64,000 nucleotides of DNA, from positions 3,323 to 67,322 of the forward strand of contig CAZPDF010000005.1 in the NCBI GenBank assembly GCA_964585475.1, given 5' to 3'. Numbering within the stretch: the first letter of the stretch is position 1; each line of letters begins with the position of its first letter. This DNA is from an uncultured Candidatus Saccharibacteria bacterium. GTDB lineage: Bacteria; Patescibacteriota; Minisyncoccia; Sungbacterales; HO2-52-23. Below the pieces are notes generated by a model, which saw only the letters and a program-made list of their open reading frames with translations, was not told the origin of the DNA and did no database searches. Positions 4,384-64,000 of the stretch are shown here, piece by piece. The position numbers were made by a program, and so were the translations under genes.

Positions 4384-4550
4384 GTGACACTTTTTATATT
4401 TCTTCCCAACAACGTTCTTACATTCTCAAGTATGTTGGTATGTTTTTATCTCCCATGACACATTTTATATTTCTTTCTGGACTATTCGCTTATTCGTACG
4501 AATAAGCGAATAGTCTCCCACATCGCATGACACTTTTTATATTTTTTTTC
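4381..4550. repeat. def-fmt intergenic array: three ~25-bp direct repeats (catgacacWttttatatttctt) at ~73-bp spacing plus a perfect 32-bp palindrome (4482-4513)
   Basis: Copies lie at about 4381, 4454 and 4526. The first contains the fmt ATG. The palindrome is ctattcgcttattcgta|cgaataagcgaatag. Confidence 0.7.
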
Positions 4551-4555
4551 GCCAA

Positions 4556-11548: not shown

Positions 11549-11821
11549 ATGGAGAAGCGGGTAGAAATTAAAGTAACCGGTTCTGTACAAGGAGTTTTCT
11601 TCCGTACAGGTGTTAAGGTAGAGGCAGAACGTTTTGGCCTTACCGGTTGGGCAAGAAACGAGCCCGATGGTTCGGTACGTATTATGGCAGAAGGCGAAGA
11701 AGAGAATTTGCAAAAGTTAGTGGAGTGGTGTAGAAAGGGAACGGAGTATTCCCATGTGGATAAGGTGGAGGTTGAATGGGGAGAGGCAAAAGGGGAGTTT
11801 TATATCTTTGAGGTTAGGTAA
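11549..11821 (+). CDS. acyP: acylphosphatase
   Basis: VTGSVQGVFFR and GWARNEPDGSV acylphosphatase signatures in a 90-aa standalone protein. Confidence 0.8.
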   Translation: MEKRVEIKVTGSVQGVFFRTGVKVEAERFGLTGWARNEPDGSVRIMAEGEEENLQKLVEWCRKGTEYSHVDKVEVEWGEAKGEFYIFEVR

Positions 11822-11826
11822 AATAT

Positions 11827-11906
11827 CTTTACGAATTACGAATAAGTATGAAGGTATGAATAAAAATCCAGATTCGTAAATTCGTAGAAATTCGTATTTC
11901 GTAAAG
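11827..11906. repeat. MITE-like element with TIRs ctttacgaaWtacgaat...aattcgtatttcgtaaag (copy 1)
   Basis: It fills the acyP-rplI spacer and shares both termini with the 32068-32220 copy. Confidence 0.75.
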
Positions 11907-13669: not shown

Positions 13670-13710
13670 ACCACATAGTTATTTAGAGTTTAGGGTTTAG
13701 AATTTAGAGT
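13670..13710. repeat. tandem TTTAGA-type repeats (tttagagtttagggtttagaatttagagttt)
   Basis: The same motif recurs at 50048-50075, at 50178-50210, and in-frame at about 16650-16695. Confidence 0.7.
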
Positions 13711-13713
13711 TTT

Positions 13714-15360
13714 ATGTCAAGATACATTTTTGTCTGCGGCGGGGTGATGTCCGGAATCGGAAAAGGAGTGGCTACCGCTTCCATCGGTCGGATTTTAAAA
13801 AGCCGCGGATTCCGGGTTACTGCCGTAAAAATTGATCCTTATTTGAATGTGGATGCAGGCACCATGAACCCCATTGAACACGGGGAAGTTTTTGTTACGG
13901 AAGACGGCATGGAATGCGATCAGGACGTGGGGAATTACGAACGGTTTCTCGGCGAGAATATTCCTAGAGAGAACTATATGACGTCCGGATCGATTTACCA
14001 AACGGTGATTGAGCGGGAGCGGAATTTGGAGTATGACGGGAAGTGTGTGCAGATTGTGCCGCACATCCCGGAAGAAGTTATTAGGAGGCTTGACCGCGCA
14101 AGCAAGAAAGCCAAAGCCGATTTTACGGTGGTAGAGATCGGAGGGACGGTCGGGGAGTACGAGAATATATTATTTCTTGAAGCAGCCCGCATGATGCGTC
14201 TTGCGCGTCCGGGAGAGGTGCTTTTTGTTTTGGTCTCCTACCTGCCTATTCCAAGCATGATTGGCGAGATGAAGACCAAACCGACCCAGCACGCGGTTCG
14301 TGCTATGAACGCTGCGGGGATCCAGCCGGATGTCATTATTGCGCGCTCGGTCGTGCCTATGGACGAGCCGCGGAAGAGAAAATTGGCGGTTTTTTGCAAC
14401 GTATTGGAGGAGGATATAATTTCCGCGCCGGATATTAAGTTCATTTACGAGGTGCCGGTAAATTTTGAAAAGGATGATCTGGGGGATAGGATTTTAATGA
14501 AGCTTGGGTTGCGGGCAAGAAAGCGTGACCTCGGCGAGTGGCGGGAGATGGTCAGGCGCATTAGGCGACTCAAGAAGTCGGTTAAAATAGGCATAGTCGG
14601 AAAATATTTCGGAACGGGCGATTTTATACTTAAGGACTCTTATATTTCGGTGATTGAGGCGGTCAAGCATGCGAGCTGGCATCACGGACGGGCGCCCGAG
14701 ATTCAATGGCTTGATGCGGAAAGTTATGAGAAAAGCGCCAAGGCGCTTGAGGAAATTAAGTCGTTTGACGGCATTATTGTGCCGGGCGGATTTGGGAGTA
14801 GAGGAGTGGAGGGGAAAATCAAAACAATTGAATTTTGCCGCAAAAATAAAATTCCTTTCCTCGGACTTTGCTACGGTTTGCAGCTTGCGGTTATCGAATT
14901 TGCGAGAAACGTCTGTGGACTGCGAGGGGCTCATACCACCGAAGTGAACCCAGAGATAAAATACCCGGTGATTCACACGATGCCGGAACAAATGGTGAAT
15001 ATTCGCGAGAAACATATGGGCGGATCCATGCGGCTCGGGGCATATAAATGTAAATTACGGGAGGGGACTATCGGTTTTCGCGCCTATGGATCAAAGTCAA
15101 TTTCCGAACGGCATCGCCACCGCTATGAAGTTAATAACGAATACCGGCACCGTCTCGAGAAAAAAGGGATGATATTTTCGGGGATTAATCCGGAGCGAAA
15201 CCTTGTAGAAATCGCCGAATTAAAGGATCACCCCTTTTTTCTCGGAACGCAGTTTCATCCAGAATTTAAGTCAAGGCCATTAGAACCTCACCCGGTCTTC
15301 AAAGAGTTTGTTAGGGCCGCAGTAAGCTGCCACAGCAAAAATAACGTACCTCTTAGCTGA
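13714..15360 (+). CDS. pyrG: CTP synthase
   Basis: MSRYIFVCGGVMSGIGKG N-terminus, synthetase domain, and a C-terminal GATase domain with GLCYGLQ. Confidence 0.95.
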   Translation: MSRYIFVCGGVMSGIGKGVATASIGRILKSRGFRVTAVKIDPYLNVDAGTMNPIEHGEVFVTEDGMECDQDVGNYERFLGENIPRENYMTSGSIYQTVIERERNLEYDGKCVQIVPHIPEEVIRRLDRASKKAKADFTVVEIGGTVGEYENILFLEAARMMRLARPGEVLFVLVSYLPIPSMIGEMKTKPTQHAVRAMNAAGIQPDVIIARSVVPMDEPRKRKLAVFCNVLEEDIISAPDIKFIYEVPVNFEKDDLGDRILMKLGLRARKRDLGEWREMVRRIRRLKKSVKIGIVGKYFGTGDFILKDSYISVIEAVKHASWHHGRAPEIQWLDAESYEKSAKALEEIKSFDGIIVPGGFGSRGVEGKIKTIEFCRKNKIPFLGLCYGLQLAVIEFARNVCGLRGAHTTEVNPEIKYPVIHTMPEQMVNIREKHMGGSMRLGAYKCKLREGTIGFRAYGSKSISERHRHRYEVNNEYRHRLEKKGMIFSGINPERNLVEIAELKDHPFFLGTQFHPEFKSRPLEPHPVFKEFVRAAVSCHSKNNVPLS

Positions 15361-16423: not shown

Positions 16424-16852
16424 GTGCCATACATTATGATTATGCTATACGAATACCTCCAAAAAGTCAAATCCTTTATTTCGGCCAATAAATCCGACCT
16501 CTACGTTGCGGCTATTATCTTTTTGGTCGGCCTTTCCAGTTTCGGCTTGGGGCGCCTTTCGGTTTTGTGGCCCACGAAAGAACCAATTAGAATTGAGAAT
16601 CTAGAATCTGGAGTACAGGATCTAGAAAAATCAACATCTGACGGTAACACCGATAACCCATCATTAAATTCTAAATCCCAAATTCTAAATTCTGGTGGCA
16701 AGTACGTTGCGTCCAAAAACGGCACGGCGTATCATTATCCGTGGTGTTCGGGAGCTTTAAGGATTAAGGAAGAAAATAAAATCTGGTTTGAAACCAAAGA
16801 AGCGGCGGAAAAAGCCGGATATAAGCCGGCAGGGAATTGCGAGGGATTATAG
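16424..16852 (+). CDS. membrane-anchored Ada-like metal-binding domain protein
   Basis: N-terminal TM. The C-terminal YHYPWCSG...IWFETKEAAEKAGYKPAGNC resembles the Ada N-terminal Zn-binding domain. The middle carries in-frame ttctaaat/atctagaa repeats. Confidence 0.45.
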   Translation: MPYIMIMLYEYLQKVKSFISANKSDLYVAAIIFLVGLSSFGLGRLSVLWPTKEPIRIENLESGVQDLEKSTSDGNTDNPSLNSKSQILNSGGKYVASKNGTAYHYPWCSGALRIKEENKIWFETKEAAEKAGYKPAGNCEGL

Positions 16853-26510: not shown

Positions 26511-26530
26511 TTTTCTTCTCAGCGCACAAT

Positions 26531-26627
26531 TTCAGCGTAGTAATCAGCGTCTTATCAGCGGTTTCCAAGGTTAGTCCGCTGATTTAACGCTGATCCGGCA
26601 CGCTGATCGAGCGCTGAATAATCAGGT
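26531..26627. promoter_or_regulatory. array of heptamer CGCTGAT (x4 direct, ~11-bp period) and inverted ATCAGCG (x2-3) between murG and ftsW
   Basis: Direct copies at 26577, 26588, 26601 and 26612. Inverted copies at 26543 and 26554. The helical-turn spacing suggests a regulator binding array. Confidence 0.4.
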
Positions 26628-30883: not shown

Positions 30884-32065
30884 TTAGCGCCCTATCAACG
30901 CAATGGCCATACCTATAATTGCGGCCACTACGCTAATCACCCAAAATCTCATCGTGACTTTATACGGAGGCCATCCCAGGGCCTCAAAATGATGATGGAG
31001 GGGCGCTATAAGAAACACCTTTTTTCCGCGAAAACGCTTGGATGCGAATTGGATGATGTCAGACACAACTTCAGCCATCAGTATAAGGCCAATAATGGGC
31101 AGAACCACGACCGAATCGGTAAGAAAGGCAACTACAGTGAGAGAGGTGGTAAGTCCGAGGATGCCCGATTCCCCCATATAGAAGCGGGCCGGAGGGATAT
31201 TGAACCAAAGAAAGGCAAGAATGGCTCCGAGAATGACGGCGGCAAATGCGGCCACATCAATCTGTCCTCTGAAAAATGCTATACCCGCATAGGCCGCAAA
31301 AGCGGAGGCAAAAACCCCGCCTGCCAAACCGTCAATGCCATCCACGATGCTGGAAGAAAAAAGCAGGATCATGGTGAATATAAAAAGCGGTATGTACCAA
31401 AGGCCTAGATAAAGATCTCCGAAGCCGGGGATATAAATGGCCCGCCAATCAAGCTTGAAATAAAACCACCAGGCGCCGGCAGCGGCAATGAGAAATACGA
31501 CCAAAAGCCGGTGGCGGAATTTTACCCCCCCACCTTCCTGGATGCCTTGCCTCCATGGCTTAAGAACGGCTAGGAGCTTGCGAGTAAAAGAAATTTTGGG
31601 TGTGACTTCGTTTGAAAAGGTGGGGGGGTTTATTCCCCCGGCAACATATCCGCCGCGTCCGTACACTTGCAAGAGATCGTCAACTAATCCTAAAACGGAA
31701 GCGGCGAGAAGTATAAATAACGGAAGCCATGTCTGATTTCTTGAAAGAAAATTTGCTTTATCCCAAAATGAACTATCGGTGGCGTAGGCCACAAGCCAGA
31801 TAATAAGCGCCAAGGCAATGGTGGTTGCCCAGATGAGCACCCCGCCCAGACGCGGCACGCTAACCTCGCGATCTTTATGCAGGGCCGCAAACAAAGGGGT
31901 TTGAGATCCGTCCGGAGACAGCGTACGCACTTCTTTCCGCCAGAGCTTATGGGTATAGAGAAATTTGGTAAGAAGCGGCGTCCAAAGAATGGCCAAGACG
32001 AAAGATACGGCGGAGAGGCCGAATACTTTGATGACGCTTACAATGTTGTTAACTTGGGACTCCAT
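30884..32065 (-). CDS. mraY: phospho-N-acetylmuramoyl-pentapeptide-transferase
   Basis: Polytopic with a DGIDGLAGG motif. The N-terminal region has the typical cytoplasmic loop. Confidence 0.9.
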   Translation of the reverse strand: MESQVNNIVSVIKVFGLSAVSFVLAILWTPLLTKFLYTHKLWRKEVRTLSPDGSQTPLFAALHKDREVSVPRLGGVLIWATTIALALIIWLVAYATDSSFWDKANFLSRNQTWLPLFILLAASVLGLVDDLLQVYGRGGYVAGGINPPTFSNEVTPKISFTRKLLAVLKPWRQGIQEGGGVKFRHRLLVVFLIAAAGAWWFYFKLDWRAIYIPGFGDLYLGLWYIPLFIFTMILLFSSSIVDGIDGLAGGVFASAFAAYAGIAFFRGQIDVAAFAAVILGAILAFLWFNIPPARFYMGESGILGLTTSLTVVAFLTDSVVVLPIIGLILMAEVVSDIIQFASKRFRGKKVFLIAPLHHHFEALGWPPYKVTMRFWVISVVAAIIGMAIALIGR

Positions 32066-32067
32066 AT

Positions 32068-32220
32068 CTTTACGAAATACGAATTAGTACGAATTTACGA
32101 ATTCTCCGGAACCGACATACGAATAGATTAACACGGTTCCGGTTACGAATAGTTCGTACCCGAACGCCCAGATGCGTATACGGCGTTAGGTACATCCGTA
32201 AAAATTCGTATTTCGTAAAG
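32068..32220. repeat. MITE-like element with TIRs ctttacgaaatacgaatt / aattcgtatttcgtaaag (copy 2)
   Basis: Perfect 18-bp TIRs. The internal ccggaaccg...cggttccgg IR exactly fills the mraY-dacA spacer. It shares termini with the 11827-11906 copy. Confidence 0.8.
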
Positions 32221-33189
32221 CTAAAAACTTTCTTCGAGCCACTGAATCAGTTTTCTTCCGTCTTCGAATCTATCCTCCGATCCAAGAATGATGATGGCGG
32301 CGGCCCCGCGCGGCCTGACAGGATAGATAAGAAGCAGTGCCCCTTTCGCTTCATCGGTGAAGCCGGTTTTTCCTCCAAGGATGGCCGGAAACTCTTTCAG
32401 AAGGATATTGGTATTGAACAGAGAATATTCGCGTCCGGATACGGAATAGATTTTTGTTTCTATATTTCGTGAAATTTCCCAGATTTGGCGGTGATTATAC
32501 CACGCGTATTCCGCGAGGTCTGCCAAGTTCTCCACTGTGCTAAGGTGACTCTCTTCGTCCAAGCCGGTCGGATTCCGGAAGGAGGAATTTCTCATTCCAA
32601 GCACACGAGCGCGGTTATTCATCAGATCGACAAAGGTTTTAATCCGATCTTCAAACGTGCCGCCGCCCTTATTTTCGCCCGCGGCTTCAGCCAAGGCCAG
32701 GGCGGCGTCGTTAGCGGAATTGATCAAAGCAAGGCGTATGGCATCATCACGGAAAAAAATTTCTCCGGCCGGTGCCGCGCTCAATTTCGGCTCGGCACGA
32801 AGTTTCGAGTCATTTGAGAGACGGATTTTATCGGTCGCCTCCAATTCCTCTCGCGCAACAGCGGCAGTCAAAATTTTGGTCAAACTTGCCGGGGCAAGAC
32901 GTTTTTCCGGACGCCGTGACAGAAGCGGGCGAATATCTCCGAAGAGACGGACCAAATACGCTTCTGCATCTATATTCGGCTCCGGGATATTTTTTTTCAC
33001 CGTTGGAGTTTCTTCCGCCGTTGCGACGGCTGTGTGACGCGATTCTCTAGGCAGGTTTTCGTCTCTTGAGTAGTAGTTGAAACCTCCGTGGAGTGCGGAG
33101 AGAAGAACAGGCACGCTTATAAGAAGCCCCAGAGTTTCGATTATAATCCGGCGTTTTTCAAATGGATCGCGAGGCACCAAAAAAACCAT
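32221..33189 (-). CDS. D-alanyl-D-alanine carboxypeptidase (S11 family serine peptidase)
   Basis: SxxK (ASLTK), SxN (SAND) and KTG (KTGFT) motifs with an N-terminal TM. Confidence 0.8.
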   Translation of the reverse strand: MVFLVPRDPFEKRRIIIETLGLLISVPVLLSALHGGFNYYSRDENLPRESRHTAVATAEETPTVKKNIPEPNIDAEAYLVRLFGDIRPLLSRRPEKRLAPASLTKILTAAVAREELEATDKIRLSNDSKLRAEPKLSAAPAGEIFFRDDAIRLALINSANDAALALAEAAGENKGGGTFEDRIKTFVDLMNNRARVLGMRNSSFRNPTGLDEESHLSTVENLADLAEYAWYNHRQIWEISRNIETKIYSVSGREYSLFNTNILLKEFPAILGGKTGFTDEAKGALLLIYPVRPRGAAAIIILGSEDRFEDGRKLIQWLEESF

Positions 33190-43885: not shown

Positions 43886-44146
43886 CCCGTTTTTTCCTTA
43901 AGCAGGTTATTTGATATTTTACGATATTTTCTGATATAATGCAATAGCAGGAAATTCGGGCCTATAGTTCCGACCTTCATTAAAGTTATATAGGAAGTCG
44001 AGAATCCACGATTTGACCAAATGAAGACTTGGTCAAATCGGGACTTAGTGGCAGTGTCCCGATTCAATTTTGATTGAATCGAGGATGCTCGATTTTCAAA
44101 GAAAATCGGCACATCCGGTTTGTTCACCCTCCCACCTTTTATGTTA

Positions 44147-44217
44147 GGGCTCATAGCTTAGTGGTAGAGCACCCGGTTTGCATCCGGGAGATCGGGGTTC
44201 GATTCCCCGTGAGTCCA
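44147..44217 (+). tRNA. tRNA-Ala (anticodon UGC)
   Basis: Acceptor gggctca/tgagtcc with a G3:U70 identity pair. Anticodon stem cccgg/ccggg with loop ttTGCat. T-arm cgggg-ttcgatt-ccccg. Discriminator A. Confidence 0.85.
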
Positions 44218-44342
44218 TTGGTAAAGGTGGGAGGGCAAGTCCGGTAGATGGGAGTTCCTCCGATTTTGTCTGCGGTATTACCGCAGCTACAAAATCGAGA
44301 GTCCTCGATGTGGTAAATCAAATCAAAGATTTGAACCACATC

Positions 44343-44362
44343 GGGAGATTCCCCGTAGGTCC
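44343..44362 (+). repeat. partial direct duplication of tRNA-Ala 3' end (gattccccgtaggtccat vs gattccccgtgagtccat)
   Basis: Seen directly 125 bp downstream of the tRNA. It is att-site-like. Confidence 0.6.
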
Positions 44363-44474
44363 ATCGAGCTAAGATTGAGGGGGGTTGTTACCAAGCCAAG
44401 CGTTCAGACAATCCAAAAAATCGTCAAGTCGTTAGGCGTTCCTATGGAGGATTTATTAAAATAATTTTTACAAT

Positions 44475-48391: not shown

Positions 48392-50215
<1,824 letters not shown>

Positions 50216-50512: not shown

Positions 50513-50587
50513 GAAGCTTCTTAGCTTTTTTAGCTTCTTAGCTTTTTAAGGTGGAGTTCCTAAAAAGCCAATTCCTAACAAGCTATT

Positions 50588-50614
50588 TTAGCACTCTTGG
50601 TGTTCGACTGCTAA
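50588..50614. promoter_or_regulatory. CIRCE operator (HrcA binding site) upstream of groES
   Basis: TTAGCACTC-N9-GACTGCTAA has one mismatch to the consensus TTAGCACTC-N9-GAGTGCTAA. Confidence 0.8.
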
Positions 50615-52196: not shown

Positions 52197-55184
52197 CTAA
52201 GCAACTTTCTTAAGCCACTGCCCTGTGTAGCTAGCCTTATTGGTAATGATATCCGATGGTTTCCCCTCCGCGACAACATAACCTCCTTTCTCCCCCCCTT
52301 CCGGCCCAAGATCAACTATCCAATCCGCATTTTTTAAAACATCTAAATTATGTTCAATAACAAGCACGGTGTTCCCTTTCTCCACGAGAGCGTGAAGGAC
52401 CTGAAGAAGTTTCCGGATGTCGTCAAAATGAAGTCCGGTCGTTGGTTCGTCAAGAATATAGAGCGTGGTTCCCGTGTCGCGCCTCGAAAGTTCGGTTGCG
52501 AGTTTCACTCTCTGCGCTTCGCCCCCCGAAAGAGTTGGTGCCGGCTGCCCCAGCTTTATATAGCCAAGGCCCACATCTTGAAGTGTCTGCAATTTGGATT
52601 TGATTTGCGGCACGGCGTTGAAAAACTGCAGTGTTTCTTCCACCGACATGCCAAGGATGCTGGCAATATTTTTTCCGTTATACTCAATCTCCAAGGCCTC
52701 ACGGTTATAGCGCGTCCCGCGGCACTCTTCACATTCCACGTAAACATCGGGGAGAAAGTACATTTCTATTTTTTTCACCCCCTGACCTTCGCAGGTTTCG
52801 CACCTTCCGCCCTTTACGTTAAAACTGAAGCGTCCCGGCGTATATCCAAGGGCCCTCGCATCAGAGGTTCGCGCGAATAGACTACGGATAAAACCAAACG
52901 CTCCGGTATATGTTGCCGGATTTGAACGCGGCGTTCTTCCAATCGGTGATTGATCCACCACGACAGTTTTATTTATATGCTCTATCCCAACAATCTCTTT
53001 ATGTGCGCCTGGAAATACATGAGCTCGATGGAGTTTCGCGAGGAGTGCTTTAGCCAAGACGTCATTTACCAGTGTAGATTTGCCCGAACCCGAAACCCCG
53101 GCAACGCACACAAACTTGCCCAGCGGAATTTTTACGTCAATATTTTTAAGATTGTGCTCCGTTGCCCCTTTAATGGTAAGATATTTATCGCTAATCAGCC
53201 GCGAATTTTTACCCGAATCTTTGCTCGCCGCTTCGTTTCTATTCGAGATAATTTGAGATGAAATTTGAGATTGATTAGTGACTAACACTCTTTTCCTCCC
53301 GGAAAGGTACTCCCCCGTAAGAGTTTTTGCTCGAAAGAGTTTCTTGGGGTTACCCGTAAATATAACTTCGCCGCCGTGTTTTCCCGCGCCGTGGCCAAGA
53401 TCAATTATCCAATCGGCCGAACGCATGGTCTCCGCGTCATGCTCCACCACAATGACCGTATTTCCCAAATCGCGTAGGTCTTTTAAGGTAGCAATCAGCC
53501 GCGCATGGTCCCGTGGATGAAGACCGACCGATGGTTCGTCCAGTACATAAATAATCCCTGTCAGGCGCGAGCCGATTTGGGTGGCAAGTTGTATCCGTTG
53601 TGCCTCTCCGCCAGCCAGTGTCGTTGAATCCCGGGCGATGGTTAAATACTCAAGTCCCACATCGCGCAAGAATTCGAGGCGCTTCAGAATTTCTTTTACC
53701 AATGGAGTTGCGATTTTAAGATCTCCAGAAGATAATTTCGGTGACTTTCCTTTTAGAAGTTCTTTGAAATAATTGCCGGCTGTTTCTATATTTTTTTCGC
53801 TAAGTGACGCTATATTTTCCTCCCCGATTTTTACTCCAAGTGCTTCTGGTCTTAAGCGACGCCCATTACAAGAAGGACAAGTTTTTATAATCATATATTT
53901 CTCTATCTCGGCCCGGGTAAATTCCGAATCGGTTTCCTTCCATCTGCGTTTAAGGTTGGGTATTACACCTTCAAATACGCCGCTTGAACGCGTCTCCTTA
54001 ATTTCTCCTCCCTCCTCCCCGTTAAGAATGATGTCGATCGCCTGTTGAGAAAGTTTCCCTACGGGCGAATTTAAGGAGAATTTATGGCGCTTGGCAACGT
54101 CCTCCAGAATCCACCAATACCAACTCTGCCGTCCGAGGCGATGCGAGGCAGAAGCCCAAGGGCGGATCGCGCCTTCGGCAAGGGTGAGACGCTTATTTGG
54201 AATTACGAGTTCAGGGTCAACTTCGAGAGTGGAACCTAGGCCGGTGCACATAGGGCATGCTCCGTAAGGGCTGTTGAAAGAGAACGTGCGCGGCTCAATC
54301 TCCGGCAGATTTATGCCGCAGGCAGAACAGGCAAAATGTTCGGAGAAAATATAATCGCTAATCGAACTCGAATTTTCTCCCGAATACTCGCGGATCTTTT
54401 TTGCATCATTTGAGATCATTCGAGACGGAATTCGCGATTGATTAGGGACATTTACCACCATCGCCCCTTTACCAATTTTAAGGGCGGTTTCCAGAGAATC
54501 GCGGATCCGCGCGCGATCAATATCGGTACCAAGCGTAAAACGATCCACCACTACCTCGATTGTATGTTTCTTTTTTTTGTCTAGGGTTGCTGCAAGAGCG
54601 TCGTCGAGGAGTTTCAACTCTCTGTCAATGCGTACACGCAAAAACCCGCCCCGCTTTACCTCCTCAAGAATTTGTTTGTGCTCGCCTTTTTTTCCACGAA
54701 CGAGAGGGGCCAGAATAATTATTTCCTGTTTCTTGGGAAGTTTTGAAACTGCCGATAAAATTTCGTCCACCGTCTGGCGGCCTATAGGCTTATTGCAACT
54801 CGGACAGTGAGGTTTGCCGACACGCGCAAATAGGATCCGCATATAGTCATAAATTTCGGTGATAGTCCCGACGGTGGAGCGCGGGTTTTTGGAAACAGAT
54901 TTCTGATCAATGGAAATTGCCGGCGAAAGTCCTTCAATGGATTCAACATCCGGCTTATCCTTTACGCCCAAAAATTGGCGTGCGTATGAGGAGAGTGATT
55001 CTACATAGCGGCGTTCGGCCTCGGCATAAACAGTATCAAAAGCCAACGAGGATTTTCCAGAGCCGGAAAGGCCGGTTATCACCACGAGTTTATTCTTCGG
55101 GATATCAACGTCAATATTTTTCAGGTTATGCACCCGTGCGCCGCGAATTCTTATGAAATCCGAGAGTTCCTTTGCCATAGCCAT
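52197..55184 (-). CDS. uvrA: excinuclease ABC subunit A
   Basis: Two ABC modules ([14 protein letters not shown] and [13 protein letters not shown]), Zn-finger Cys pairs, and the N-terminal [19 protein letters not shown]. Confidence 0.95.
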
Positions 55185-55229: not shown

Positions 55230-55871
55230 TCAGCGAGACGGGATACGAATTGGTACGGGCTGGGGGCGAGGCATGAATACGTTCCCTAATGAGGCCGCAA
55301 AACTTTCTAGCCATTTCCGCGCTTTTGATTTTGTAGCAGGAGGGAGATCGCAGGACCCAAAGTAAAGCGTAATTACTAACCAAAATAGGAAACTCGCGCC
55401 TAAAACCTTAAAAAAGAGCGGAACATTCGGTGTAGCCGTAGAGATTAGAAAGAACATCTTTAATATGAATGGCGGAATCACTAAGCTACAGAGAATTCTT
55501 ACCGGCGCTAAATCGAATTTAAGGTGATTTGCAAGCGATCGCATTTGTAGATCCTGCACTGTTTTTTCAAGCCGATTTACCCACCGGTATAATAAAATCC
55601 CCGGAACGAGTTCGATAAGTAAACTAGTGGATACGTCTAAATGTTTAGGCTCGTATAGTAAAACCCCGGCAAAATAAACGAGTAAACTAAGCGAGAAGAA
55701 TAGGGCGCTTTGTTTCGCGAACCAGAAACAATCTTGCCCAAATATTTTGTGCCACCAGCAACTGAAGGATTCGAACTTGTTAAGGATCCATTGATCGAAA
55801 GCCATGAGCAAGAGGATCTCCTTGCTGAATTGAGATGTCCACACTATACTCCTAGATATGCTTAATGTCAA
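55230..55871 (-). CDS. hypothetical integral membrane protein
   Basis: 213-aa ORF with about five TM helices. The start is uncertain. Confidence 0.35.
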   Translation of the reverse strand: MTLSISRSIVWTSQFSKEILLLMAFDQWILNKFESFSCWWHKIFGQDCFWFAKQSALFFSLSLLVYFAGVLLYEPKHLDVSTSLLIELVPGILLYRWVNRLEKTVQDLQMRSLANHLKFDLAPVRILCSLVIPPFILKMFFLISTATPNVPLFFKVLGASFLFWLVITLYFGSCDLPPATKSKARKWLESFAASLGNVFMPRPQPVPIRIPSR

Positions 55872-57327
55872 GAAATGGAAGAGGGCGCCGAATACACCCG
55901 GCGTTTATGCATTCCAAAAAGGTTCCGCACAACTTTATATAGGCAAAGCCGTAAATCTTAAAAAGCGGGTTGCTTCATATTTCCGGAAAAATATAAGCGG
56001 CAAAACGCGCGAACTTCTAAAAGAAGCGACAAAACTTGATTGGATCGAAACCGCGTCTGAAATAGAGGCCTTTCTAAAAGAGGCGGAACTCATTAAAAAA
56101 TACCGCCCCAAATATAATATCCTGATGCGGGATGACAAAAATTATTTTTATGTGGGGATTACCCAAGAGCAGTTTCCGAGAATTTTTCTAACCCATCAGC
56201 CCAACCAATATCTTTCGAGTGGAGCGAAGCGAAATCGAGAAAAATTCCATAAGGTAAATTCTCGACTTCGCTCGAACAGTAATTTTACTGGTCCTTTTAC
56301 GAGCGGAAATGCGCTGAAATCAGTCTTGCGGCTTCTGCGCCGTATTTTTCCCTACTGCACTTGCAAAACGTCGCACAGGCGGCCGTGTTTGAATACGGAG
56401 ATTGGGCGATGCCCTGGCTACTGTTGTCTCCAAGGCGAGCTACAACACACCAACATTCTCAAGTATGTTGGTGTGTTGTCAGAGCGAAAAAAAGAATACG
56501 GGACAAATATAAAAAATATAATTGCCGTGCTTTGCGGGAAAAAGAAGCGGATTCGAACGGAATTGAGACGCTCGATGAACGAGGCGGCAAAGAGGGAAGA
56601 CTTTGAAAAAGCGGCAAAAATTAGGGACCAACTCAATGGACTTGAAAATATATTTTCGCATCGGAAATTTTTAGAGGTTGAACCTCCCGTTGGGGGTTCA
56701 ACCTCCCCGAGACTACTATGGCCCAGGGTCGAAAAGTACATCCGGAGTCTCCTAGGAATAAAAAAGCCCATTTCTCGAGTTGAGGGCTATGACATTTCAA
56801 ATATATCGGGGGCCGAGGCGACCGGCTCAATGGTGGTATTTATTGAAGGGAAACCGGTAAAATCCGAGTACCGTAAATTCAAAATTAAGACCGTCCGGGG
56901 CATAAGCGATGTGGGTATGTTACGAGAAGTGGTCGCCCGGCGAATGGCACATGAGGAATGGCAATATCCGGACCTCATGTTAATTGATGGGGGGAAACCG
57001 CAGTTCAATGCGATACTTAGTACGCTCTCTAATCAGTCACGAATAAAAAGATCTCGAATAATCTCGAATGCCCAGCATAAAATTCGAGATATTTCGGGTA
57101 TGAATTCGGGACCGATTAAAGGGATTAAAGTGGCGGCGCTCGCTAAACGCGAGGAGGAATTATATACTGAAGGCGCGGGAAGGCCTATCCGTCTTTCCTC
57201 ACTCCCTGAAAATACTGCCAATTTCTTGAAACGCGTGCGGGACGAATCGCACCGCTTCGCCAAAAAATATCATCATAAGTTACGCGAAATAAGCTTTCGC
57301 AGTAATGCAGAAAAAAGCGAAATCTGA
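55858..57327 (+). CDS. uvrC: excinuclease ABC subunit C (short form lacking C-terminal HhH)
   Basis: GIY-YIG N-terminus (GVYAFQKGSAQLYIGKAVNLKKR), a Cys cluster, and a C-terminal RNase-H-like endonuclease domain. It contains an in-frame palindromic insert. Confidence 0.8.
   Translation: MLNVKKWKRAPNTPGVYAFQKGSAQLYIGKAVNLKKRVASYFRKNISGKTRELLKEATKLDWIETASEIEAFLKEAELIKKYRPKYNILMRDDKNYFYVGITQEQFPRIFLTHQPNQYLSSGAKRNREKFHKVNSRLRSNSNFTGPFTSGNALKSVLRLLRRIFPYCTCKTSHRRPCLNTEIGRCPGYCCLQGELQHTNILKYVGVLSERKKEYGTNIKNIIAVLCGKKKRIRTELRRSMNEAAKREDFEKAAKIRDQLNGLENIFSHRKFLEVEPPVGGSTSPRLLWPRVEKYIRSLLGIKKPISRVEGYDISNISGAEATGSMVVFIEGKPVKSEYRKFKIKTVRGISDVGMLREVVARRMAHEEWQYPDLMLIDGGKPQFNAILSTLSNQSRIKRSRIISNAQHKIRDISGMNSGPIKGIKVAALAKREEELYTEGAGRPIRLSSLPENTANFLKRVRDESHRFAKKYHHKLREISFRSNAEKSEI
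56214..56284. repeat. palindromic repeat copy C inserted in-frame in uvrC (gagtggagcgaagcgaaatcgag...ctcgacttcgctcgaacagtaa)
   Basis: It shares gctcgaacagtaa with copy D and gagcgaagcga with copies A and B. It encodes LSSGAKRNREKFHKVNSRLRSNS. Confidence 0.6.
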
Positions 57328-59926: not shown

Positions 59927-59972
59927 AAAAGAATCCTAGTCAGAATCCTAGGATTCTGACTAGGATTCTTTT
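59927..59972. repeat. perfect 46-bp palindrome aaaagaatcctagtcagaatccta|ggattctgactaggattctttt
   Basis: Seen directly, immediately 3' of the dnaK stop. It may act as a bidirectional terminator or attenuator. Confidence 0.8.
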
Positions 59973-63962: not shown

Positions 63963-63989
63963 TTAGCACTCCCATGTCAAGAGTGCTAA
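63963..63989. promoter_or_regulatory. CIRCE operator upstream of hrcA-grpE-dnaK
   Basis: Perfect TTAGCACTC-N9-GAGTGCTAA. Confidence 0.85.
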
Positions 63990-64000
63990 TATTGACAGTT

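Follow-up and report, generated by a model that had tools for sequence, protein, structure and literature searches.

Two palindromes in gene spacers of Candidatus Sungbacteria are probably copies, lacking the reading frame, of a small selfish cassette that carries a putative nuclease gene in its full-length form

Introduction

What are the two palindromic elements that fill the acyP|rplI and dacA|mraY spacers in a 64,000-nt contig stretch (the window) of Candidatus Sungbacteria, within the candidate phyla radiation (CPR; Patescibacteria), and how did they come to lie there? Both were described in an earlier note as transposable elements of the miniature inverted-repeat type (MITEs) with 18-bp terminal inverted repeats (TIRs) and probable promoter activity for rplI and mraY. 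The analysis reported here favors a different origin: each locus is probably a copy, without an open reading frame (ORF), of a selfish cassette that is small and palindromic and, at full length, includes a gene for a putative nuclease. The anatomy and spread of the elements, the gene found between their arms, their insertion sites and their likeness to intervening sequences (IVSs) of 23S rRNA are given in turn, and rival explanations are then weighed.

Anatomy of the window copies

Copy 1 (positions 11827..11906, 80 bp) and copy 2 (32068..32220, 153 bp) are ORF-less palindromic elements; no strand is assigned to the copies themselves or to their centres. In copy 1 the left arm (11827..11861, plus strand) consists of CTT followed by TACGAA at 11830 and 11837 and TATGAA at 11847 and 11855, giving a spacing of 7/10/8 between hexamer starts. 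A central loop (11862..11871, AAAAATCCAG) separates it from the right arm (11872..11906, minus strand), where four intact TTCGTA hexamers are followed by AAG. Copy 2 opens on its mraY side with CTT and TACGAA at 32071, 32078, 32088 and 32096 (arm 32068..32102, plus strand), again at 7/10/8. Its 83-nt centre (32103..32185) contains internal hairpins, CCGGAACCG...CGGTTCCGG and AACGCC...GGCGTT, as well as additional TACGAAT motifs; nothing related to it was found among the fetched loci, and no remnant of the GxxExxY gene described below could be recognised in it. The dacA-side arm (32186..32220, minus strand) has degenerate inner hexamers (TAGGTA, TCCGTA), two intact outer TTCGTA hexamers and a final AAG.

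Both copies share the termini CTTTACGAAWTACGAAT / ATTCGTAWTTCGTAAAG. Copy 1 starts with CTTTACGAATTACGAAT and ends with AATTCGTATTTCGTAAAG, the two ends being mismatched at 1 of 17 positions; copy 2 starts with CTTTACGAAATACGAATT and ends with the same AATTCGTATTTCGTAAAG, a perfect 18-nt reverse complement. When the 17-mer CTTTACGAAWTACGAAT was searched with up to 3 mismatches, only these four ends matched in the 64 kb (0.67 matches expected from shuffles). TACGAAT occurred 22 times in the window (9.1 expected), 11 of them inside the two loci. A repeat finder aligned the left ends of the two copies over 39 nt (85% identity) and their right ends over 31 nt (90%). Copy 1 was also present, identical, in an independently assembled 562-bp contig (L001; L numbers denote fetched loci) and is therefore no assembly artefact.

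Coordinates, lengths and shared termini, including the perfect reverse complement in copy 2, were exactly as the earlier note had described. Its 18-bp TIRs stood in part: the inverted termini are perfect or near-perfect over 17-18 nt, and the ends proved to be 34-nt arms of four hexamers at 7/10/8 rather than plain TIRs.

The TACGAAT family

Each end of an element is a 34-nt arm of the form N-TT-TACGAA-W-TACGAA-TNNN-TACGAA-TN-TACGAA (hexamer starts 7/10/8), and the two arms are inverted around a centre of variable length. Genomes, one per species, were scanned with the pattern CTTTACGAAWTACGAATWNNTA, and 61 loci were returned, mostly from CPR (Sungbacteria, Saccharibacteria, Doudna-, Moran- and Azambacteria, other Parcubacteria). 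Several Bacteroidota metagenome-assembled genomes (MAGs) were also among them; one such contig (L061) carries rnfC and rnfD, recognised by translated N-termini without a family search, and was therefore judged unlikely to be mis-binned CPR DNA. The earlier picture of a dispersed, non-coding, inverted-repeat-bounded family with differing internal lengths was borne out by these 61 loci, and the possibility raised with it, that only two copies exist, is contradicted by termini conserved far beyond the window. Scan matches in Nostoc and in viral contigs were rejected as family members, being tandem runs of 2-4 units with no palindrome; no canonical element was found in the viral contigs, where matches were chance hits or perfect tandem heptamer runs.

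Many genomes had multiple scan matches, with at least 11 elements in the fetched loci of Sungiibacteriota JACPBG01, and copy density was about 1 per 30-65 kb. One layout recurred in the printed contexts: four TACGAA hexamers, a variable centre (0 to >100 nt across family members) and four TTCGTA hexamers. Using an nhmmer model of the arm, 38 paired elements were found among the loci fetched by then, in size classes of 68 bp (arms abutting, …TACGAATTCGTA…), 78-114 bp and, in three cases, 465-527 bp. All four window arms scored 28-42 bits against this model: 28.2 bits (E 7.6e-07) and 42.1 bits (E 3.2e-11) for the left and right arms of copy 1, and 42.4 and 28.1 bits for the mraY-side and dacA-side arms of copy 2, the latter covered by the model at 32190-32220. 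The model also matched L048, L054, L064 and many metagenome cassette arms.

The conserved objects in the arms are the hexamers rather than base pairs. Arm positions unconstrained by the scan pattern still read TACGAAT-N-TACGAAT in 57-73 of 74 arms. Among 41 partner arms outside the pattern, the commonest base averaged 0.90 in hexamers and 0.64 in spacers; of 58 ORF-less arms, 53 were spaced at exactly 7/10/8. Decay is visible in many copies. Solo arms were also seen; none adjoined a GxxExxY gene, and many of them have a decayed partner arm. Some elements of Saccharibacteria (L017, L043, L044) hold a second, unrelated GC-rich palindrome (…CTCTCCCCACCTCCTGGGGAGAGGGG…) in their centres, for which reason the centre appears to be a site of nested insertion.

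A GxxExxY gene between the arms

The three long forms were found through their arms alone: L048 (527 bp, Sungiibacteriota), L054 (465 bp, Doudnabacteria) and L064 (481 bp, a Bacteroidetes MAG). In each, a single ORF of 99-133 aa was found, with matches to TIGR04256 ("GxxExxY protein", E 1e-29) and PF13366 (PDDEXK_3, E 3e-30). In a reverse test, 80 metagenome loci were fetched by protein similarity (relatives 43-74% identical to the query). Inverted arrays bracketed nearly every fetched GxxExxY gene, the ORF filling the centre, with its ATG abutting or overlapping the last left hexamer and its stop codon abutting the first right hexamer. By a strict count, which required two or more copies of one hexamer in the 70 nt upstream and two or more of its reverse complement downstream, 47 of 79 GxxExxY genes (about 60%) were bracketed, compared with 8 of 134 control ORFs from the same loci; some of those 8 were neighbours sharing an arm.

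The repeat motif is uniform within an element and varies by subfamily (TACGAAT, TACGAAA, TACAAAT, TACTAAT, TACGGAT, TACAGA, TGCGAAT, ATCTCTAAT), and motif type follows protein clusters. The short-long-short spacing is kept across motif classes (8/11/8 or 7/11/8 for TACAAA). Concerted change of the repeats within a kept geometry would be expected of a co-evolving, sequence-specific reader, and on this comparison of sequences the encoded protein would be the most economical candidate. In the TACGAAA subfamily (L116, L133, L140, L113), two complete palindromes flank the GxxExxY gene, one per side, instead of half-arms. In 27 loci the cargo gene pointed the same way as both of its neighbours, and in 0 it pointed against both (p = 1.5e-8); this fits read-through expression and would also fit a strand-specific insertion mechanism.

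Cargo homologues 60-76% identical to the query were found in Omnitrophota, Bacteroidota, several CPR phyla and a Pacearchaeota (DPANN) archaeon. This spread agrees with the "multiple transfers" of PDDEXK_3 reported in a superfamily survey, which lists the function as unknown (PMC3424549); within the incomplete coverage of the literature search, no function of GxxExxY/PF13366 was found, this being the only survey found that mentions PF13366. No solved structure was detected for the protein by sequence search. An AlphaFold2 model built from 40 homologues (predicted local distance difference test score 91.5) was compared by Foldseek, and only generic minimal PD-(D/E)XK neighbours were returned, at template modelling scores of 0.4-0.6 (Cas4 SSO0001, lambda and alkaline exonucleases, tRNA-splicing endonuclease, Hjc). 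Residues D72, E82 and K84, which form the D…ExK motif, are invariant. The predicted fold supports a nuclease and leaves its substrate, whether DNA, a DNA junction or RNA, unspecified.

No GxxExxY gene was found in either window copy or elsewhere in the 64-kb window. Because no such ORF lies between their arms, the window copies were filed as ORF-less derivatives and not as full members. Such forms may have lost the ORF, or ORFs may have entered pre-existing palindromes at the centre.

Insertion sites and flanking genes

In the complete Sungiibacteriota genome CP066690.1, the gene order scpA-scpB-dacA-mraY is the same as in the window and the dacA|mraY spacer is 3 nt long, an empty site; in another relative (L003) this junction holds an unrelated 105-nt spacer. 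Two 68-bp copies that are identical, spacers included, but for the last base lie before rnc in L053 and before dnaE in L012, and two identical 86-bp copies flank rpsE in L052. Two species (L012 and L063) have kept an orthologous copy upstream of dnaE. Members of the TACGAAT family were seen in spacers and rRNA only, not demonstrably inside coding sequence.

Insertions lie flush with the neighbouring genes. Among 108 distinct arm ends analysed, 44 faced a gene start, with the start codon at 2 nt in 22 and at 3 nt in 9, and 33 faced a stop codon, which lay at 0 nt in 13 and at 1 nt in 6. The pattern arises partly because the elements were inserted into tiny native spacers (1-3 nt in CP066690.1). 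The peaks are sharp enough to suggest a further cause, which could be a preference for certain targets or a filter by selection, for example for translational coupling across a hairpin base that would join stop and start codons.

Copy 1 lies between acyP (acylphosphatase; 11549..11821, plus strand; PF00708, E 5.9e-26), whose stop codon is 5 nt before it, and rplI (ribosomal protein L9; 11910..12356, plus strand; PF01281 and PF03948), whose ATG is 3 nt after it. Copy 2 lies between dacA (Peptidase_S11 D-Ala-D-Ala carboxypeptidase; 32221..33189, minus strand; PF00768, E 5.2e-32), with the stop codon TAG at 0 nt, and mraY (30884..32065, minus strand; PF00953), with the ATG at 2 nt. The Pfam matches confirm the gene assignments made in the earlier note, and the borders show that the copies fill their spacers, as had been claimed. 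On the start side both copies fall within the peaks (3 and 2 nt); on the stop side copy 2 (0 nt) does so too, with copy 1 (5 nt) narrowly beyond the peak at 0-1 nt.

The mraY ORF of the window encodes 393 aa. A public MraY gene call of 348 aa is identical over its length (89% of the query), and the 45 additional N-terminal residues (MESQVNNIV...) are conserved in relatives that are 78% identical. The closest further relatives are annotated as Sungbacteria or Sungiibacteriota. Judged by this conservation, mraY seems truly to start beside copy 2, and the public call is apparently too short.

RNA folding, promoters and terminators

The sense-strand RNA of copy 1 folded into a single long hairpin (free energy -29.4 kcal/mol, z -6.2), and the sense-strand (minus) RNA of copy 2 also formed a hairpin (-63 kcal/mol, z -6.3). 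Rfam models at gathering thresholds returned two tRNAs only in the whole window, and an E-value search with copy 1 returned no matching family, merely sub-threshold look-alikes of miRNA hairpins. Neither a sigma-70-like promoter consensus nor an intrinsic terminator was found inside either window copy. Seventeen of 23 confidently placed copies lay between co-directional genes, where no promoter is needed. The polarity of ORF-less copies relative to the host operon, read from asymmetric spacers (TTTT vs TCAN), could be classified in only 6, of which 2 had the same and 4 the opposite polarity.

Relation to 23S rRNA intervening sequences

In a Saccharibacteria contig (CAYNFS010000012.1; L011 366-433), a 68-nt ORF-less TACGAAT element interrupts the 23S rRNA gene in its 5' region. 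This gene has 78 nt between about positions 224 and 233 of the Rfam large-subunit rRNA model, against 8 in the model, and the element is a genuine rRNA IVS of the TACGAAT family. Genes for four-helix-bundle proteins in L082, L120 and L131 were flanked by inverted arrays of other motifs, and two of the three were confirmed as TIGR02436 ("23S rRNA IVS protein" family); in L120 the arrays are built of TTTAGGR.

The closest known system is the S23p-type IVS, with a four-helix-bundle protein (PF05635/TIGR02436), of Leptospira and Coxiella burnetii. The C. burnetii 23S IVS is a selfish element of 428-444 nt with a 28-bp stem formed by terminal inverted repeats; three tandem GACAGAT heptamers and a degenerate fourth stand directly before the S23p start codon, and the stem is cut by RNase III (PMC4990558). 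The origin and mobility of rRNA IVSs have been open since about 1990 (PMC4990558). Full-length members of both systems fall in a size class of about 430-530 nt, and in both 3-4 heptamers immediately precede the start codon of one small ORF, which takes up the whole loop. S23p IVSs are likewise patchy, horizontally transferred and regarded as selfish (PMC4990558). The window copies share the stem of terminal inverted repeats and the heptamer arrays, the L011 copy shares the insertion into a 23S rRNA gene, and the fetched four-helix-bundle genes occupy similar cassettes. The two systems differ in that the window copies are devoid of an ORF and are placed outside rRNA, in spacers of protein-coding genes; the cargo of the TACGAAT family is the PD-(D/E)XK protein GxxExxY and not a four-helix-bundle protein; the heptamer is TACGAAT here and GACAGAT in Coxiella; and excision by RNase III has been shown for rRNA IVSs only.

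Sister families and other repeats in the window

Ten inverted hexamer-array structures were found in the window, compared with about 0.5 in shuffled sequence. Three 96-nt palindromic heptamer-array copies belong to a sister family, ATCNCTAATC…GATTAGYGAT (ATCNCTAATCAATCTCNAAT...GATTAGYGAT), and lie in frame inside DNA-repair genes. Two are in uvrA (52197..55184, minus strand) at 53187-53282 and 54354-54449, corresponding to UvrA residues 246-277 and 635-666, and one is in uvrC (55858..57327, plus strand) at ~57031-57126, corresponding to UvrC residues about 391-425. Each adds 32 residues in one shared reading frame (VxNQSxIxSxxISN…SGxNSxxIxx; translations include SNQSRIKRSRIISNAQHKIRDISGMNSGPIKG), and both UvrA segments were identified as insertions by alignment to solved UvrA structures (PDB 2r6f). 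The same sister-family arms bracket GxxExxY genes in L123, L126, L128 and L141.

Further arrays were noted in other spacers. The groES|groEL spacer (50048-50215) is 168 nt long, with inverted TTTAGRA/TCTAAAT heptamer arrays around a GC-rich centre, and is 25 nt long in CP066690.1; the TTTAGGR motif also flanks the four-helix-bundle (TIGR02436) gene in L120. The ftsW|murG spacer (26511-26621) contains four TCAGCG and then four CGCTGA repeats. At the same junction L003 (5994-6120) has a different array, TTCAAAA / TTTTGCA, and CP066690.1 (L002 18885-18931) has 47 nt with no arrays; the junction was therefore colonised independently. A solo arm of four tandem TTTAGRG heptamers (13681-13706) stands directly before the CTP synthase ATG at 13714, and an inverted TAGAAT / ATTCTA array (16585-16696) lies inside a hypothetical 142-aa ORF (16424-16852) without a Pfam match. 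A perfect 46-nt palindrome of GAATCCT repeats (AAAAGAATCCTAGTCAGAATCCT | AGGATTCTGACTAGGATTCTTTT) is found at 59927-59972 in a 251-nt spacer.

The spacer at 4384-4555 contains three 26-nt direct repeats (TGACACTTTTTATATTTCTT-like) every 71-72 nt and a palindrome, GGACTATTCGCTTATTCGTACGAATAAGCGAATAGTC, with its centre at ATTCGTACGAAT; the 36 nt at 4409-4444 recur at 56442-56477 (83%). Inverted repeats of the form TTAGCACTC-N9-GAGTGCTAA at 50585-50614 and 63963-63992, one of them upstream of groES, resemble the consensus of the controlling inverted repeat of chaperone expression (CIRCE), and this resemblance suggests heat-shock control by HrcA in the source CPR genome. The tRNA-Ala gene (44147-44217) is bracketed by a perfect 13-nt inverted repeat (CCCTCCCACCTTT ... 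AAAGGTGGGAGGG), which may be a processing stem, within a repeat-rich spacer of 589 nt (43886-44474).

Discussion

If the window loci are ORF-less copies of a selfish, nuclease-carrying cassette, the following course can be proposed. The element would be transcribed within the host operon, and its arms would pair as a long hairpin, by which the insert is looped out. By analogy with 23S rRNA IVSs, the hairpin would probably be cut by RNase III, and insertion would thus be nearly harmless. The cassette's own protein would recognise the heptamer arrays, and a full-length copy at another place in the genome would maintain or move the ORF-less copies in trans. In compact genomes only flush insertions would survive selection.

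Several points weigh against this account. No target-site duplication was present at any of the 33 ORF-less copies inspected, both window copies included. Centres differ among copies of one genome, which is unexpected for recent copy-and-paste of a master MITE. Arms and ORF are physically joined, so that part of the agreement between motif and protein cluster is plain common descent; the link could have arisen in this way and not through recognition, and the presence of four-helix-bundle genes in similar cassettes could mean that the arms are read by a host factor and not by the cargo protein. With no GxxExxY gene in the 64-kb window, trans-mobilisation in the source genome is unproven. Cleavage of window-type elements by RNase III is an extrapolation from rRNA IVSs. 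Mismatches in the arms showed no excess of G-U over A-C (67 vs 81 on the cargo strand, 12 vs 13 on the host strand) and were mostly transversions in spacers, so that selection on an RNA-level stem is not demonstrated. No transposition chemistry is known for the GxxExxY protein family.

The first description of the loci as MITEs would make them deletion derivatives of an insertion sequence, moved by a DDE-type transposase acting on 18-bp TIRs, with target-site duplications and an outward promoter to rplI and mraY. Small size (80 and 153 bp), absence of coding capacity, inverted-repeat boundaries and dispersal all agree with this, as do the empty dacA|mraY junction of CP066690.1 and identical short copies at different loci. 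The MITE label is apt to that extent, the elements being non-autonomous, dispersed and bounded by inverted repeats; it fails on the duplications that the earlier note proposed to look for, absent at 33 of 33 copies, on the ends, which are four-hexamer arrays and not a single TIR, and on the transposase, the sole gene found between arms being that of a PD-(D/E)XK GxxExxY protein of 130 aa. Promoter activity for rplI and mraY is likewise unsupported by the sequence of either copy, which has no sigma-70-like site, and is not needed where, as for most copies, the element sits in a string of co-directional genes. A classical MITE is accordingly regarded as very unlikely. Independent origin of AT-rich low-complexity repeats by replication slippage, with no common descent, has a negligible probability and is effectively already refuted. 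Heptamer tandem arrays do arise by slippage, as the perfect TACGAAT runs in unrelated viral and cyanobacterial contigs illustrate; the 17-18-nt match of the termini, with 0.67 chance matches expected even with 3 mismatches, the non-tandem 7/10/8 spacing in 53 of 58 arms from many phyla and the conservation of partner arms that the search pattern had not selected all speak against it.

A module that serves the host is more plausible than either, and still unlikely. The arrays might be operators for a cooperative host DNA-binding protein (for example of the ribbon-helix-helix type), or the hairpin might be under selection for RNA processing, RNA stability or translational coupling. A geometry fixed at 0-1 nt from the stop codon on one side and 2-3 nt from the start codon on the other would be explained, as would the retention of hexamers while spacers drift, spacing kept across motif classes, solo arms directly before start codons and the orthologous copy upstream of dnaE in two species. 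The neighbours, however, are unrelated housekeeping genes without a coherent regulon (rplI, mraY, dnaE, rnc, rpsE, rpsH, atpA, proS, murB), close relatives have no element at the same junction, and many copies are decaying. An element that interrupts 23S rRNA, a sister family in frame in uvrA and uvrC, and a patchy distribution across phyla in company with a horizontally transferred cargo gene are equally at odds with host service. A selfish cassette, of which the window loci are ORF-less copies, remains the probable explanation.

Other known repeats resemble the cassettes in part. Correia/NEMIS elements (Neisseria), RUP, ERIC and Nezha MITEs are also short, non-coding, inverted-repeat-bounded, dispersed between genes and co-transcribed with their neighbours, and the hairpins of Correia elements may be processed by RNase III. 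They differ in that Correia elements duplicate TA, no target-site duplication and no cognate transposase being found here, and in that the window family has hexamer-array arms, low copy number and hypervariable centres. Rickettsia palindromic elements (RPEs) are palindromic selfish elements tolerated between genes and in frame in essential genes, and the sister family in the window similarly lengthens uvrA at two places and uvrC at one, by 32 codons each time and in one reading frame. In sequence the window elements are unrelated to RPEs; among the loci seen, the TACGAAT family proper is confined to spacers and rRNA; and no protein gene is known to be associated with RPEs. Repetitive extragenic palindromes (REPs) and bacterial interspersed mosaic elements also lie between convergent or co-directional genes and are thought to be moved in trans, without target-site duplication, by a single-copy domesticated enzyme, the REP-associated tyrosine transposase (RAYT), a likeness to the window elements. 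REPs are single hairpins of 20-40 nt with a GTAG or CGTC tag (PMC3733652); the arms here begin NTTTACGAA and have no such tag, and RAYT is an HUH tyrosine transposase whereas the protein associated here has a PD-(D/E)XK fold. Cyanobacterial short tandemly repeated repetitive (STRR) sequences share heptanucleotide arrays in intergenic DNA, and the Nostoc scan matches are tandem TACGAAT; they are perfect tandem runs without 7/10/8 spacing or an inverted partner arm. Sites for attC and dif/Xer recombination, LexA and CIRCE boxes, DNA uptake sequences and parS were set aside as identities for the TACGAAT element, since all of them are at odds with its sequence and copy density.

A broader reading can be offered tentatively, and with more doubt than the account of the window loci. 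Heptamer-armed cassettes may form one superfamily of minimal mobile elements that unites 23S rRNA IVSs, GxxExxY/PDDEXK_3 genes and the four-helix-bundle 'IVS protein'. The cargo protein would read the eight heptamers of its own arms, with a specificity that switches in concert by subfamily (TACGAAT, TACAAAT, TACTAAT, TACGGAT and others), and would drive copying of both full-length and ORF-less forms into tolerated sites: flush stop|start junctions, in-frame surface loops (UvrA, UvrC) and rRNA expansion sites. Within a literature coverage that was incomplete, most papers of subscription journals lying outside it, no prior description of the association between cargo and arms or of these elements in CPR was found, and nothing linking TACGAAT, MITEs or palindromic elements to CPR.

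These findings link large orphan families (GxxExxY/PF13366 and the four-helix-bundle IVS protein) with the long-unexplained rRNA intervening sequences. The gene for the putative GxxExxY nuclease occupies the same type of heptamer-armed palindrome as the IVS ORFs, and the arms persist without an ORF between genes, inside rRNA and, in a sister family, in frame inside genes. A testable model follows, in which a protein would read its own heptamer arms. For the annotation of CPR and other streamlined genomes, such spacers would be treated as inserts and not as promoters, with start codons expected 2-3 nt past the element, and selfish DNA may account for 32-codon "insertions" in proteins like UvrA.

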